NCBI GenBank assembly: GCA_963782525.1
Contig: CAWAKC010000008.1
Span: forward strand, 1-64,000
Length of the DNA stretch: 64,000 bases
Reading direction: 5' to 3'
From: Candidatus Bathyarchaeota archaeon
Lineage (GTDB): Archaea; Thermoproteota; Bathyarchaeia; Bathyarchaeales; Bathycorpusculaceae
Shown here piece after piece: positions 31,629 through 50,662 of this stretch. Under the pieces are notes generated by a model. That model had not been told where the DNA came from. It made no database searches and was given only the letters and a program-made list of their open reading frames with translations. Position 1 is the stretch's first letter, and every line of letters starts with the position of its first letter. Both the position numbers and the translations under genes were made by a program.

Positions 31629-32732
31629 ATGCAGACTCGAGTGGTTATACTTGCTGATTTTGACTATTTCTTTGCCCAATGCGAAGAACTACGTAATCCA
31701 GACATAAAAGACAAACCAATTGTCGTCGGCGTCTATTCAGGACGCACCGAAGAAAGCGGAGCAGTGAGCACCAGCAACTACATCGCACGCAAATACGGCG
31801 TCAAATCCGGTATGCCCTTGTTTTTGGCGAAACGTAAACTGGAAGGCACCGAAGCGGTTTTCTTCAAAGTAGACCATGAATATTATGACCAAATCAGCGA
31901 TCGCATCATGCAGATTTTCCGAACTTACGCAACCAGCCTTGAGCAAGTTAGTGTGGACGAAGCCTATTTGGATGTTACTGCGCAGGTGGATGGCAGTTTT
32001 GAGAAGGCAAGGGATTACGCTCAGCAAATCAAAGTCGATGTCAAAGCGCAGGTAGGGATTTCATTCTCGATAGGAGTTGGACCTAACAAGCTTGTCGCCA
32101 AAATCGCTTGTGACAGCCAAAAACCTGATGGCTTAACCATTATTAAACCCGAAGAAACTAAGGCTTTTCTTGCACCCCTCGAAGTTGACCGCCTCTTGGG
32201 AGTAGGCAAAAAAACAATGGTCCGCATGGAACAGATGGGTATCAAAACCATCGGCGACCTAGCAAAATGCGATTGTCAAAAGCTTATCGAAGTCTTCGGC
32301 AAAGCATTAGGCATTTACTTTCATAACGCAGCCAATGCTGTCGACAACGAACCCGTTGTTGAGCAGGGAGAAGCAGAATCCATCAGTCGTATCGGAACCC
32401 TAAAACAAGACACCCGGGACTTGGAATTTATTCTTCAGAAAACCAACGAACTAGCCGAAGATGTCTACAAGGACCTGACAAACAGAGCAGTAAGTTTTAA
32501 GCTGGTTTCTATTTATGCGGTTAATGTGGATTTAAGTTGCAAAAGCCGATCCGTAACACTTGATCAACCAGCAAAAGATAAAGAAACCATCAACAGAAAT
32601 GTGCGTATGCTTTTCGAGAAATTTTTGGCGGAGTCACCACTTGGCGTTCGTCGAGTCGGTGTTCGAGTTTCATCCTTCAGTAAAGAAGAGCCAAGGCAGA
32701 AGTCACTGTCAAGCTTTTTCCAAAGTATCTAA
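31629..32732 (+). CDS. dinB: Y-family DNA polymerase IV
   Basis: DFDYFFAQCE, SNYIARKYGV, SVDEAYLD, KPDG. Confidence 0.95.
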   Translation: MQTRVVILADFDYFFAQCEELRNPDIKDKPIVVGVYSGRTEESGAVSTSNYIARKYGVKSGMPLFLAKRKLEGTEAVFFKVDHEYYDQISDRIMQIFRTYATSLEQVSVDEAYLDVTAQVDGSFEKARDYAQQIKVDVKAQVGISFSIGVGPNKLVAKIACDSQKPDGLTIIKPEETKAFLAPLEVDRLLGVGKKTMVRMEQMGIKTIGDLAKCDCQKLIEVFGKALGIYFHNAANAVDNEPVVEQGEAESISRIGTLKQDTRDLEFILQKTNELAEDVYKDLTNRAVSFKLVSIYAVNVDLSCKSRSVTLDQPAKDKETINRNVRMLFEKFLAESPLGVRRVGVRVSSFSKEEPRQKSLSSFFQSI

Positions 32733-42172: not shown

Positions 42173-42424
42173 ATGGTGAATTTTTTGTCACAACCCAAAA
42201 AAGTAACACGCCAAGAACTACAAGAAAACAACGGAAAAAACGGAAAACCAGCGTACCTTGCCTACAAAGGAAAAGTGTATGATGTTTCAGATAGCAGTTT
42301 CTGGATGGAAGGCGACCACATGGGCATGCATGATGCAGGCAAAGACTTAACGGAAGAACTTGAGATGGCGCCGCACCGAGAAGAAACTTTCCAGCGCGTA
42401 AAGTTTGTGGGCGACCTCGTTTAG
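42173..42424 (+). CDS. Cytochrome b5-like heme/steroid-binding protein
   Basis: YKGKVYDVS..W..G.H...HDAGKDLT..APH. Confidence 0.88.
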   Translation: MVNFLSQPKKVTRQELQENNGKNGKPAYLAYKGKVYDVSDSSFWMEGDHMGMHDAGKDLTEELEMAPHREETFQRVKFVGDLV

Positions 42425-43656
42425 AAGAGGCATTGCAGCACACCGTCAACCCTGTGCAATCCATTTATCACATTTTTTAATTCTTTTTCGCTCAGCAACT
42501 GTCTTTTCTTATGGAGTTCACTTATGGTTTCGTAGAGGCTGTCGAAGGCTGATTTTATATCCAAATCGTTGTTCATGCATTCTTCAAAACCAACTATGAT
42601 TTTGCCCTCTAAATCTTCCCCTGCCCCTGCCGAACTCAAAGACGTAGTCTTTTCTAAATCCGTGACCATGCTCCTGAAAGTATCCAGTTTTTGAATTGTC
42701 TGCGCAAACTTTTCAAACGTGAAGTTCAACTTCTGCCTGTAAGGACCGTAAATCAAGAAGAACCTTAATTGTTCGCCGCTAAAGCCTTTGGCGTAGAGGT
42801 CTTTGGGGTAGTAGACGTTGCCTTTGCTTTTGCTCATTTTTTTGCCGTCCACGAATAGGTGTCCACCATGCAGCCAGTACTTTGAGAATTGTTTGCCGGA
42901 AACCGCTTCTGCAACCGCCAACGTGTAATCATGGTGGCGTACCAGGTTATCGATTCCACCGCATCCTACGTCGATTGTGAAGCCTAAATGTTTGGTTACT
43001 ATAGCGGCATCTTGAATGTTCCATGCTGGTCTGCCCTTGCCAATAGCGGTTTGGTAACAAACATCTTTTTGTTCACAGCCATGCCAAAGAACAAAATCCC
43101 CCATATTCCAAGGCGTACCAGGATACGTGTCTTTGTGGAACCGCCGCTTCTTAGTGGGCCACTTATTCATGTCCAAGTGAGCAAGTTTGCCAAAGCCCCT
43201 GAATTTTAAAGGATCAAAATAAATGTTCTTGGCACCTTCAAATGTGAATGGGTAAGCGATGCCCTTTTCCATAAGCTTCAAAATCAGGTTGGCCGCTTGA
43301 TCCACCGCGGTTGAAGCTCTCACAGGGTAATCGGGTTTCTTAATTTTTAAAAGTTCAAAATCTTTGAAGAAAACTGCTTCGTTTTTCCGTGTTAGCTTTT
43401 CCACACTGAGGTTTTCTTTTTTGGCCTGAGCAATCGCTTTATCCTCCACATCGGTTAGAGTCATCAGCCGCATAACTTTGTATCCCGAATATTCGAGGTA
43501 CCTTTGAAATATGTCTTCGAAGAGGAAAGTGCGGTAATTCCCGATGTGGGCAGCTTGGTAGGTTGAGGGACCGCACGTGTACACTTTAACCTGCATGTCT
43601 TCTGCTGGCTGAAATCCTTCAATCTTGCACGTTAAAGTGTTGTAGAGGTTGAGCAA
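42421..43656 (-). CDS. Cysteinyl-tRNA synthetase paralog (altered Zn site, no anticodon domain)
   Basis: CGPSTY..AHIGN, DFVLW and KMSKS present, but WNIQD replaces WHIEC and HHDYT replaces HHENE; 411 aa. Confidence 0.85.
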   Translation of the reverse strand: MLNLYNTLTCKIEGFQPAEDMQVKVYTCGPSTYQAAHIGNYRTFLFEDIFQRYLEYSGYKVMRLMTLTDVEDKAIAQAKKENLSVEKLTRKNEAVFFKDFELLKIKKPDYPVRASTAVDQAANLILKLMEKGIAYPFTFEGAKNIYFDPLKFRGFGKLAHLDMNKWPTKKRRFHKDTYPGTPWNMGDFVLWHGCEQKDVCYQTAIGKGRPAWNIQDAAIVTKHLGFTIDVGCGGIDNLVRHHDYTLAVAEAVSGKQFSKYWLHGGHLFVDGKKMSKSKGNVYYPKDLYAKGFSGEQLRFFLIYGPYRQKLNFTFEKFAQTIQKLDTFRSMVTDLEKTTSLSSAGAGEDLEGKIIVGFEECMNNDLDIKSAFDSLYETISELHKKRQLLSEKELKNVINGLHRVDGVLQCLF

Positions 43657-43669
43657 TTTTTTTCCTCTG

Positions 43670-44146
43670 TTAAGCGGTGGCTTTTTCTTCTTTCTTTATT
43701 TCCATAAGAGTTTTCTTTGCTTCTTCCACATGCCGAGGCGCCTGGGTTTGGGAATTAAAAATGTGGCGGACAATCCCCTTCTTGTCACTGATATAAGTAA
43801 CTCGCCCAGGAATTATACCCATCGTTGAAGGGACACCATAGAGTTCCCTAACTTTGTTGCCTTCATCGCTGAGTAGAATAAATTGCAGCCCATAATGAGT
43901 TGCGAAAGACTTGTGGGATTCCACGCTTTGCCCGCTTACGCCTAACACTTCAGCGTCCAACTTGGTTAATTCTTCGTAGTTATCTCGAAAGGTGCATGCC
44001 TCTTTTGTGCATCCTTGCGTTTCGTCTTTGGGATAGAAGTGCAAGACAACGCTCTTTTTGCCCATAAACTCTGAGAGCGTTACGTTGTCGCCCATTTGGG
44101 AGGGAAGCGTGAAATCAGGCGCTTTATCGCCGACTTTAACTGTCAA
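43670..44146 (-). CDS. bcp: Peroxiredoxin Q/BCP
   Basis: FYPKDET.GCTKEAC. Confidence 0.92.
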   Translation of the reverse strand: MTVKVGDKAPDFTLPSQMGDNVTLSEFMGKKSVVLHFYPKDETQGCTKEACTFRDNYEELTKLDAEVLGVSGQSVESHKSFATHYGLQFILLSDEGNKVRELYGVPSTMGIIPGRVTYISDKKGIVRHIFNSQTQAPRHVEEAKKTLMEIKKEEKATA

Positions 44147-48592: not shown

Positions 48593-50662
48593 TTAGGTTG
48601 CTTTGATGTTTATGGTCCCTTTCGTGTAGGGCACAAACTCGCGGACCTGTTCAATTGAGGTTTTTCCTGCTTTTTCTCTCAGTTCCTTTGTTAGCTTTAG
48701 CATTAGGGATTTGAGGATCTGCTTGAGTAACTCTTTTCCCACAGTATCCCCTGGAACCAGGACCACGTAAGCTTTTGTTTTCGCCTTTACAGCTTCTACT
48801 GGGCCCCCAACAAAACTTGTTTCTTCGCCAACGATTATGCCGATTGCCACTCTTAGAGGCGTGTTTCTGTACCAGTTGCGTTTGCCCACCACAAAAAAAG
48901 CGCCATGCGGAACCGACTCGCCAGACGGTCCACTCTTGCTGAGTTGGTCAACTTTAACCCAGTAAACGTCTGCTGTCCCAAGGTTTTCCCGCCAAGCCCG
49001 CGAAAAAGAAGCTGCAAATTCAGCCGCTTCACGTAACGCCTGCTCACTTATTTCTCGGCCCTCAGCTTTAATGACGACGAATGGTGACCCCGTGATTTCA
49101 GCGTGAAAAACCACATCCTCCTGAGCAGTGTGCTTTTTGACTAGCACCTCGTTGCTAACAGTATCTTTACCCGCAACCACCAAAAATCCATCTGAGGAAA
49201 TGTACCAGCGGAACTTCTCATACCACTCCTTGTTCTCCATTGCTTCTTTGCGTTTAGAGAGGGCTTCCATGATTTGCGCTGGCTTTAGACTCTTTAACTC
49301 TTCTGCTTCAGTCAGTTCGCGTTCGATTTTGGCGAGTTTTCTCTTAGACTCCTGTAGCGCTGAGAGGGCACCTTGGGATTTCTCTTTAGCCTTTTTGCCA
49401 TGCTCATAGTATCTGTTGGCGTTGTCGAAAATTGAATCTCGGAGGTTAAAGCTGAAATGATAATTGTCCACGAATAAGTTTAATGCAAGGTTTTTGCCGT
49501 CGAAACCTTCAACGTAGGTCGCCGGCAATTTGCCTGCTTTTTTTGCGGCCATAACTGTAGTGATGATTGTGTCCCAGTCGTGTCCTTGATTGTTGGCTTT
49601 AAGAAGGTTCTCTTGGAAAGTTTGGAGTTCATTAAAGTGTGCGTAGATAGTATCGCCGATAAGTTTGTCGCGTTCGGCTTTGGTTTCATCTTCATGGATG
49701 GATTTTTCCTGGTCCGCAACAATTCGCTTTAGTCGTTCGGCTTCTTTTTTTATCTTGTCAACTTCGAGGTGGTTAACGGCTCTTTCAGCAACCGTAACCC
49801 GCAAATAAAATTCATCCAAAGCTTGATTGAAGCTGTCATAGGTTTGCAGTTTGCAGCCTTCATAACGTTTCAGCTTGATTGGCACAACATCCATAAAATC
49901 GCCTTCCTCGCCCAGAATTATGCATGCTTCCAATTTGCCGCCTGAAACTGCCGACAACAAAGTTTTCAGGGCACCAAAAATTGCTTCCGCTTCGCTGTTT
50001 GTTATTGTGTTGCAATGTTTAGTTTTATCCACGCCAGCTCGTAGTAAAATTTCCTCAGCGTAAACTCCGCCAACCCCCAAAAATCTCGCAATTGACCTAA
50101 CTACCTCTGTTTCTCCTGCGTTTTTGAGGGCCTCTTCAAGTTCGGTTTGGGTTACTTTGAATGGGTTTTTGCCGCTTGACGGCGGAAGCTCCAGAACCAC
50201 ATTGTGCAGGATGTCGCGGTCACGCATTTTCTTGAAGGCTAACGCGTGAATGATGACGTTTTGATCGTTGGTTAATATGATGTTGCCGTCGCCGAAAAGC
50301 TCCACTACAAGCTTAAGCAACCCAGTTTTGGTTCGAAAGCTAACTGTTACGATTCTTTCAAACTCGTACTGGTCAATACCTGCAACCCAAGCGCCACGCA
50401 AGTATTTTCGTAGTATCATACAGAAGGCTGGTGGTTCAGCTGGGTTTTCTTCTGCGTAGCTGGTGGCGTGTAATCTTCTGCCCGCTTCGATCACCAGTCG
50501 AATTGGAGGCAAATCGGTTTTGTGAAGTTTGAAAATGACGGTTTTCTCGTCAAGTTGGTGGATGTTGTTCACTCTGGAATCTGCTAAAGTGTTTTTTAAT
50601 TCTTTGATTGCGGCGGCAATGTCAAAGCTTGAAAACTCTTTTTTGCGCAACCCATTCACCAA
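48593..50662 (-). CDS. rqcH: Ribosome quality control factor aRqcH (NFACT/Rqc2)
   Basis: SSFD, FCMILRKYL, ELFGDGN, WYEKFRW..SSDGFL, GAF. Confidence 0.93.
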   Translation of the reverse strand: MVNGLRKKEFSSFDIAAAIKELKNTLADSRVNNIHQLDEKTVIFKLHKTDLPPIRLVIEAGRRLHATSYAEENPAEPPAFCMILRKYLRGAWVAGIDQYEFERIVTVSFRTKTGLLKLVVELFGDGNIILTNDQNVIIHALAFKKMRDRDILHNVVLELPPSSGKNPFKVTQTELEEALKNAGETEVVRSIARFLGVGGVYAEEILLRAGVDKTKHCNTITNSEAEAIFGALKTLLSAVSGGKLEACIILGEEGDFMDVVPIKLKRYEGCKLQTYDSFNQALDEFYLRVTVAERAVNHLEVDKIKKEAERLKRIVADQEKSIHEDETKAERDKLIGDTIYAHFNELQTFQENLLKANNQGHDWDTIITTVMAAKKAGKLPATYVEGFDGKNLALNLFVDNYHFSFNLRDSIFDNANRYYEHGKKAKEKSQGALSALQESKRKLAKIERELTEAEELKSLKPAQIMEALSKRKEAMENKEWYEKFRWYISSDGFLVVAGKDTVSNEVLVKKHTAQEDVVFHAEITGSPFVVIKAEGREISEQALREAAEFAASFSRAWRENLGTADVYWVKVDQLSKSGPSGESVPHGAFFVVGKRNWYRNTPLRVAIGIIVGEETSFVGGPVEAVKAKTKAYVVLVPGDTVGKELLKQILKSLMLKLTKELREKAGKTSIEQVREFVPYTKGTINIKAT

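Follow-up and report, generated by a model that had tools for sequence, protein, structure and literature searches.

A putative cross-domain family of short cysteinyl-tRNA synthetase-like ligases with a rebuilt specificity site

Described CysRS paralogs and the gene in the window

Each of the synthetase paralogs with a changed substrate (MshC, GluQ-RS, CysRS* and the amino acid:carrier-protein ligases) has opened up new chemistry or new routes in the use of the genetic code. The present report concerns a gene for a short protein resembling cysteinyl-tRNA synthetase (CysRS), found in 64,000 nucleotides of a Candidatus Bathyarchaeota archaeon genome (GCA_963782525.1, contig CAWAKC010000008.1, positions 1 to 64,000; this whole stretch is the window in what follows). 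By its signature it is a member of a family of short CysRS-like ligases, seemingly undescribed so far, that spans two domains of life and has its specificity site rebuilt.

In canonical CysRS from E. coli the zinc ligands are reportedly C28, C209, H234 and E238. MshC, the Cys:GlcN-Ins ligase of mycothiol synthesis (TIGR03447), is also derived from CysRS, has about 410 residues and no anticodon-binding domain, and retains the thiolate equivalent to C209. CysRS* of Desulfobacterales, in the accessible parts of its description (Mukai et al. 2016/2017, PMC5389517), is likewise an extra cysS copy without anticodon-binding domain and with changes in connective peptide 1 (CP1); its gene follows selC*-selB* and goes with an opal-suppressor tRNACys. 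CysRS* sequences come from D. biacutus and D. limicola, and CysRS* is reported to be inactive in E. coli. From a different synthetase family, GluQ-RS (YadB), a shortened paralog of GluRS, attaches glutamate to the queuosine of tRNAAsp and offers, by analogy only, a precedent for a class I paralog that acts on tRNA without an anticodon domain (available sections of PMC9437257). A table in the same partly available 2022 review lists CysRS* and MshC as the only CysRS paralogs, and a full-text literature search, with supplements outside its range, returned no description of a WNIQD/RHHDY-type CysRS paralog.

The window gene starts with TTG, and its 411-residue product matches Pfam tRNA-synt_1e over residues 15-320 (251 bits, E 2.1e-74), so it is a real gene and no chance open reading frame (ORF). 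A sequence-only reading of the window had described the class I motifs HIGN and KMSKS as intact and three further motifs as altered, and all of them are found as it stated: HIGN starts at residue 37 and KMSKS at 273, while GRPAWNIQD (208) carries WNIQD for WHIEC, DVGCGG (229) stands for DIHxGG and RHHDYT (240) for PHHENE; TCGPS begins at 27. HIGN is not a deviant form because it is the commonest one in the ordinary CysRS of the examined set, and only the His is lost in DVGCGG because its Cys is also present in the canonical CysRS of the host (DIHCGG). When aligned by HMMER with the E. coli enzyme (1li5_A, E 1e-55), the window protein keeps C28, W205, H234 and H235 as its C28, W212, H241 and H242; changed are H206 (N213), E208 (Q215), C209 (D216) and H224 (G231), together with E236 (D243), N237 (Y244) and E238 (T245). 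From the four mapped zinc-ligand positions, C28 and H234 are thus kept and C209 and E238 replaced, with the Asp and Thr equivalents that had been proposed from the letters alone.

The end of the protein falls directly after the DALR-type helices, again as first noticed, and the canonical CysRS of the host runs 60 residues further, with DALR_2 at 358-410 followed by the CysS_C anticodon-binding domain (PF23493) at 419-466. What is missing is therefore specifically CysS_C, for which Pfam returned no match in the window protein or in its relatives P0331 and P0121. An AlphaFold2 model (predicted local distance difference test 94.4, predicted template modelling score 0.93) compares by Foldseek with CysRS structures at a template modelling (TM) score of 0.82-0.87 (full-length 1u0b 0.87 when query-normalised, 0.78 when target-normalised) and with the MshC structures 8hfn, 8hfm and 3c8z at 0.80-0.84, slightly below the CysRS fit.

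The window protein has in common with canonical CysRS (TIGR00435; PF01406 + PF09190 + PF23493) the Rossmann catalytic domain, HIGN, KMSKS, the equivalents of C28, H234 and W205 and the DALR-type helices, at 29-38% identity. It differs in scoring below the equivalog cut-off, in having no CysS_C, in the replacements C209->D, E238->T/N, H206N, E208Q, P->R240 and N237Y, in a variable H224 position and in being an accessory second copy. Identity to MshC is 22-24%, the score on TIGR03447 is 181.6 bits against a cut-off of 485.1, the C209-equivalent thiolate retained in MshC is lost, and the family forms its own clade. As to CysRS*, both it and members of the present family occur under Desulfobacterales labels, yet no SelB-type GTPase or adjacent tRNA was seen at the loci of the latter (an EF-Tu/SelB-type G1 motif in 0 of 1113 neighbour ORFs from 96 loci), no tRNA-Sec was found in the genome, and the CP1 motif reads LAHL or LFRL in our alignment against the PTVS reported for CysRS*; this sets the family apart from CysRS* by the description in the available parts of PMC5389517, not by the CysRS* sequence.

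Conservation and constraint in the WN[IV]QD/RHHDY family

We define the family by CGPS, WN[IV]QD and RHHDY, by the absence of CysS_C and by a length of about 400-425 residues, all of which are found in the window protein. The listing from a word-indexed protein search has 120 clusters with identities of 72-100%, most of them 411 residues long with few exceptions (range 388-437). Their public names are 'cysteinyl-tRNA synthetase' or 'class I tRNA ligase family protein', and deductions of the Cys-tRNA route from genomes of Bathyarchaeia and Syntrophobacteraceae can go astray on this account. From the best 150 representatives at 50% identity, 15 carry both WN[IV]QD and RHHDY, down to 43% identity, and no C-terminal domain was found in these 15; the 53-residue tail of P0159 is unlike CysS_C on inspection.

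A comparison of 20 family members with 113 full-length CysRS shows eight positions that are invariant in the paralogs and unlike the canonical majority (T31S, D71E, H213N, E215Q, C216D, P240R, E243D and N244Y), with Y155F nearly fixed (F in 19 of 20). HIGN, KMSKS, T68, D69, W212, H241 and H242 are common to both sets. In a broader set of 91 near-full-length members, drawn from 96 loci, C28, S31, N213, Q215, D216, R240, H241, H242, D243 and Y244 are present in every sequence, and so are T68 and D69. Conservation of WNIQD/HHDYT among homologs, which the sequence-only reading had put up for checking, thus holds for N213, Q215, D216 and R240-Y244, and fails at the last residue: position 245, the E238 equivalent, is variable (T 36, N 28, V 12, S 9, I 6). 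The H224-equivalent position also varies among the 91.

The CP1 loop (residues 160-186) has its own fixed residues, W166, P167, D176, Y178, W183, N184 and G186 each occurring in 91/91 members. Its mean net charge is +5.2 in the 20 paralogs, -0.9 in the 113 canonical CysRS and +2.9 in the short second copies of DPANN archaea discussed below; over the aligned protein, the paralogs carry +13 and canonical CysRS -7. Pairwise ratios of nonsynonymous to synonymous substitution (dN/dS) against five orthologs range from 0.07 to 0.23, leaving out the pairs with L012 and L013 (both saturated, L012 also out of register with dN 0.62), and the paralog gene is under purifying selection.

We see here a large, strongly conserved two-domain family in which the best-understood specificity device of a synthetase, the selection of cysteine by a zinc-thiolate site, is rebuilt in a single fixed manner with the catalytic machinery kept. 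It poses the questions of which amino acid is activated, which acceptor is used and which metal is bound, and cultivable or enrichable bacterial hosts may allow tests.

An Asp at the C209 position is also present in 7 of the 113 full-length CysRS representatives. Full-length CysRS with WHIED include P0171, P0234, P0257 and P0259, some with PHHECE, and the short protein P0264 reads WHIQD and PHHSAQ. P0208 and P0129, two relatives rich in G+C, appear degenerate: C28, HIGN and KMSKS are lost from the former, and the middle part of the latter is scrambled, suggesting a frameshift. A search for fusions ('Rosetta stone') among proteins of 721-2055 residues gave 23 matches, all at <=39% identity, which are canonical CysRS fusions and none of them family members. 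P0130 and P0275-P0292, with DPANN labels (Nanoarchaeota, Woesearchaeota), are proteins of about 760-800 residues with PALP (PF00291, cysteine-synthase type) fused to a full CysRS. Several clusters of CysRS-like proteins of about 400 residues, in Bacteria and Archaea, are present in the ESM Atlas.

The canonical cysS, the carriers of the paralog and its descent

The host genome (2.87 Mb in 12 contigs, 95.8% complete) has a second cysS. On the NCBIfam cysS model (TIGR00435) the window protein reaches 309.5 bits, below the cut-off of 340, and an ORF on another contig (C11) reaches 502.9 bits and carries WHIEC, DIHCGG, PHHENE and CysS_C; the window gene is therefore a paralog, as the sequence-only reading had proposed. 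Housekeeping Cys-tRNA is supplied by the canonical cysS, and the window gene is not the sole route to it. SepRS was not found in the genome, its best match being a PheRS-like ORF with 51.2 bits (cut-off 380.65), and neither was SepCysS (44.6 against 365.25); a class I analogue of SepRS was dropped as a candidate on this account.

ARAGORN lists 46 tRNAs in the genome, with one tRNA-Cys(GCA) and no suppressor, although allo-tRNAs could escape the tRNA tools used. The best tRNA-Sec score is 40.8 bits against a gathering score of 47 and falls on ordinary tRNAs. A dedicated tRNA partner was not found, either in these genome searches or beside the gene.

Among 201 class-sampled genomes, matches of at least 51% identity occur in 11, each of which has two matches (for nine, the listing includes one of canonical type as the second), and a twelfth genome, G175, of the same genus as the window, has a broken copy (L023/L105; G175:C14:55407-56638) with a frameshift and an in-frame TGA, in two overlapping frames. 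Shortened paralog copies are also seen in L177 and L018. The window's genus, represented by 12 genomes, has five intact copies, one broken copy and six genomes in which none was found. The locus of congener G102 reads zinc-ribbon protein, Cytb5, a gap of 185 bp, peroxiredoxin and hydrolase, with the paralog cleanly absent; in the other four of the five paralog-less congeners searched, no peroxiredoxin was found at E<=1e-30. Evidently, the paralog gene is accessory, dispensable yet constrained. From 401 phylum-sampled genomes, family-level scores of at least 644 bits were obtained in eight, all Bathyarchaeia, the next best being 413 bits.

Our observations are not limited to Archaea. A set of 80 metagenome loci spans 34 to 65% G+C, and some of them have bacterial-type neighbours, with histidine kinase and MatE confirmed by Pfam and RaiA/HPF-like and RND proteins apparent in our own reading. 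A search with a protein from a bacterial-type locus brought up clusters under the labels Syntrophobacteraceae, Syntrophobacter sp. and Desulfobacteraceae, in part from contigs as long as 4.97 Mb, and all seven members checked from these clusters carry WN[IV]QD and HHDYN. The family is thus not only archaeal, and the specifically archaeal product imagined from the letters alone has to be given up, since the same signature stands under bacterial metagenome-assembled genome (MAG) labels. Two proteins that share 75-77% identity with that of the window, P0051 and P0090, come from 3-5 kb contigs under Chloroflexi and Binatia MAG labels, which mis-binning or recent transfer could explain.

The family is one clade in both trees calculated, with support of 98 and 100 in the Shimodaira-Hasegawa approximate likelihood-ratio test (SH-aLRT), apart from all full-length CysRS, including those from the same Bathyarchaeia genomes. 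Its nearest neighbours in the best tree, which is unrooted, are short CysRS-like proteins (405-413 residues) labelled Micrarchaeia, Micrarchaeota and Ca. ainarchaeum, and seven such DPANN proteins lie with the family on one side of a branch with SH-aLRT support of 98. These short copies (e.g. P0131 from Micrarchaeia, P0147 from Ca. ainarchaeum and one in G542) resemble the family in length, end point, CGPS, EDKA and a basic CP1 loop, and they also coexist with a full-length CysRS: G542 has one of 587.6 bits next to a short copy of 352.9 bits, and among 101 genomes of its phylum 100 have the full-length form (including the unpublished G571) and 13 also the short one. Unlike the family, they have WxIEC and HHENE and keep all four zinc-ligand positions. 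Truncation is for this reason weak as an argument for a new substrate, which was one of the uses made of it in the sequence-only reading.

Descent from an anticodon-domain-less CysRS lineage near the DPANN short copies is suggested by these trees, without being settled. A recent duplication of the host's own cysS is contrary to the best tree, yet a tree joining the family to the host's CysRS clade is not rejected by the approximately unbiased (AU) test (p 0.191, log-likelihood difference 43.9). Another short CysRS-like second copy of about 410 residues occurs in a different Bathyarchaeia genus (L125, L126 and L127, in G134, G164 and G111); its long stem (0.88) arises among the canonical CysRS of the tree, and the anticodon domain thus seems to have been lost more than once.

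Proposed function, gene neighbourhood and alternatives

We lean, with modest confidence, towards the window protein being a neofunctionalised, non-housekeeping class I adenylate-forming ligase, with a changed amino-acid selection and an acceptor read without an anticodon. An anticodon-domain-less CysRS lineage would here have given rise to an accessory ligase with a new role. With its ATP site (HIGN, KMSKS) and alpha-amino anchor (T68/D69) preserved, the protein would still be expected to form an aminoacyl-adenylate. The zinc-thiolate site for cysteine shows a single fixed pattern of rebuilding (C209->D, E238->T/N/V/S/I, H206->N, E208->Q, a variable H224 position, and the new R240 and Y244), which points to a changed amino-acid selection; most likely the pocket would take either a non-cysteine amino acid or cysteine held in a different, less thiolate-rich metal site. 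The activated residue would then pass to an acceptor recognised without an anticodon and held by the basic CP1 loop on a basic protein, and a polyanionic acceptor such as RNA would fit these charges better than a sugar. An RNA or tRNA 3′ end is thereby slightly and weakly favoured over a small molecule, in the manner of CysRS* or GluQ-RS. A published table, in the available part of PMC10810186, lists a CysRS-specific insertion module as tRNA-binding, and we infer that this module corresponds to the CP1 loop of the window protein. The tRNA-independence proposed by the sequence-only reading is not supported, given the retained DALR-type helices, the CP1 charge and the basic protein.

Stress and efflux genes recur in the gene context, which differs among subclades. 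In the window's own subclade the whole region is syntenic, the Cyt-b5-like gene being kept in 16 of 17 related genome loci, and a peroxiredoxin gene lies 8-24 bp upstream of the paralog in 15 loci; there the two genes are probably co-transcribed, and the 13-bp spacing in the window, which had been read correctly from the letters, is a hint of stress-linked expression. In one other clade, a DinB/Pol IV gene follows the paralog by 9-19 bp, or overlaps it, in 14 loci. Upstream neighbours further include a MatE efflux gene in seven loci (12-19 bp away in several) and CNNM/CorC in six; ABC-2 exporter genes adjoin the paralog in about five, and a hydrolase-OsmC fusion is upstream or nearby in seven loci of another subclade. 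Each of these links is subclade-specific synteny.

Several observations weigh against our preferred proposal. The Asp of the seven full-length CysRS mentioned above means that D216 may still hold a metal and that cysteine is possible as substrate. No neighbour common to all subclades was found among the loci compared, so context points to no pathway, and tRNA genes near the paralog, in 103 loci, are limited to three distant ones (Gln, Gln, Met), none adjacent. The genome has its single tRNA-Cys and no tRNA-Sec was found in it; the MatE or ABC-2 exporters next to the paralog in some bacterial-type loci suit an exported small-molecule product; and the basic charge speaks only indirectly for RNA binding.

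A more specific version of the proposal, which we offer as speculation and regard as rather improbable in its full detail, is a new synthetase-like family exchanged between Desulfobacterota and Bathyarchaeia that would load a non-cysteine amino acid, possibly non-proteinogenic or charged, on an RNA or tRNA 3′ end without reading an anticodon, for a stress-linked, non-canonical purpose. What was once the zinc site (C28, D216, H241, N213, Q215, R240 and Y244) would here form the pocket, and the purpose might be intentional mis-acylation, RNA modification or the tRNA-dependent synthesis of a metabolite.

As an alternative, a tRNA-independent, MshC-like ligase could join cysteine or another amino acid to a small-molecule amine, giving a low-molecular-weight thiol, a cofactor or an exported metabolite. 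We consider this unlikely, if the best of the rivals. Its layout would be that of MshC (catalytic and helical domains without CysS_C), the Foldseek scores against MshC structures are high enough to be consistent with it, and the upstream peroxiredoxin, the OsmC fusion, the close MatE genes and the ABC-2 exporters could all be fitted to such a product. However, the MshC model score is not only far below its cut-off but lower than that of the cysS model, and the mycothiol pathway was not found in the genome: the best MshA match has 147.4 bits against 462.5, hence generic glycosyltransferases, and MshB has no match at E<=1e-5. A biosynthetic partner conserved across subclades was not found either, the protein is strongly basic as a whole and in its CP1 loop, and loss of the C209 thiolate ligand argues against a cysteine-based thiol. 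The low-molecular-weight thiol role named as a possibility from the letters alone thus finds no support, and the adjacency of a peroxiredoxin gene is confined to one subclade, with G102 keeping the peroxiredoxin without the paralog.

Less probable still, to our judgement, is a CysRS isozyme with a thiolate-poor metal site (Cys/Asp/His) that would resist oxidation or zinc shortage, charge tRNACys through its acceptor stem and be expressed under stress with the peroxiredoxin. The catalytic motifs and helical domain are all kept, Asp at the C209 position has its full-length precedents, co-transcription with the peroxiredoxin is probable and the protein is basic; moreover, in the available parts of the respective papers, Zur-linked CysRS paralogs occur in proteobacteria (PMC2770081) and an engineered CysRS without anticodon-binding domain charged tRNA in vivo (PMC5389517). 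Against it, those Zur-linked paralogs retain the zinc ligands, as far as the accessible text of PMC2770081 goes. The second-shell residues H206, E208 and H224, invariant or nearly so (100% or close to it) in canonical CysRS, are all replaced, and R240 and Y244 are new and invariant, a pattern that speaks for a new pocket rather than a change of metal. Moreover, the family is old, cross-domain and patchy, and its peroxiredoxin link is confined to one subclade.

Finally, a protein that is no transferase, making an adenylate-derived signal (e.g. Ap4A) or acting as a non-catalytic regulatory or binding protein, would suit the stress and damage genes that recur beside it by subclade (peroxiredoxin, OsmC fusion, DinB/Pol IV, MatE) and the loss of C28, HIGN and KMSKS in the divergent P0208, but is very improbable, as HIGN, MSK, T68 and D69 are invariant in the 91 members, which implies retained catalysis, a fixed rebuilt side-chain pocket would be superfluous for a mere Ap4A synthase, and the neighbour links are subclade-specific synteny.

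Table 1. Coordinates in the window of the paralog gene, its motif sites and the two adjoining genes.
Feature	Positions	Strand	Basis
Short CysRS-like paralog gene (WN[IV]QD/RHHDY family), 411 aa	42421..43656	-	ORF, Pfam tRNA-synt_1e, NCBIfam cysS
Cys28 codon, equivalent of E. coli C28	43573..43575	-	1li5_A alignment; 91/91 members
HIGN, residues 37-40, class I HIGH signature	43537..43548	-	H37, G39, N40 in 91/91
CP1 loop, residues 160-186 (DMNKWPTKKRRFHKDTYPGTPWNMGDF), family-specific, strongly basic, 2-residue insertion	43099..43179	-	Alignment
WNIQD, residues 212-216, for WHIEC (C209->D, H206->N, E208->Q)	43009..43023	-	N213, Q215, D216 in 91/91
RHHDYT, residues 240-245, for PHHENE (H234, H235 kept; E238->T)	42922..42939	-	R240-Y244 in 91/91
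KMSKS, residues 273-277	42826..42840	-	M274, S275, K276 in 91/91; K273 in 79/91
Bcp/PrxQ-type peroxiredoxin gene, 13 bp upstream of paralog	43670..44146	-	Pfam AhpC-TSA 128.9 bits, E 1.3e-37
83-aa cytochrome b5-like heme-binding protein gene, convergent, 3′ ends overlap by 4 bp	42173..42424	+	Pfam Cyt-b5 40 bits

Within the window, no Rfam family reaches its gathering score. Two DinB/Pol IV genes are present in the genome, at 31629-32732 (+) in the window and at 6542-7615 on contig C11; the latter, 63% identical, is the ortholog of the DinB that follows the paralog in the other Bathyarchaeia clade, and the window copy is 41% identical to it. At 48593-50662 (-), 5 kb from the paralog, lies the gene of a 689-residue NFACT/RqcH-type protein (NFACT_N, NFACT-R_1), which we take to be a tRNA-using ribosome-quality-control factor and which keeps its place in 12 of the 17 syntenic loci compared.

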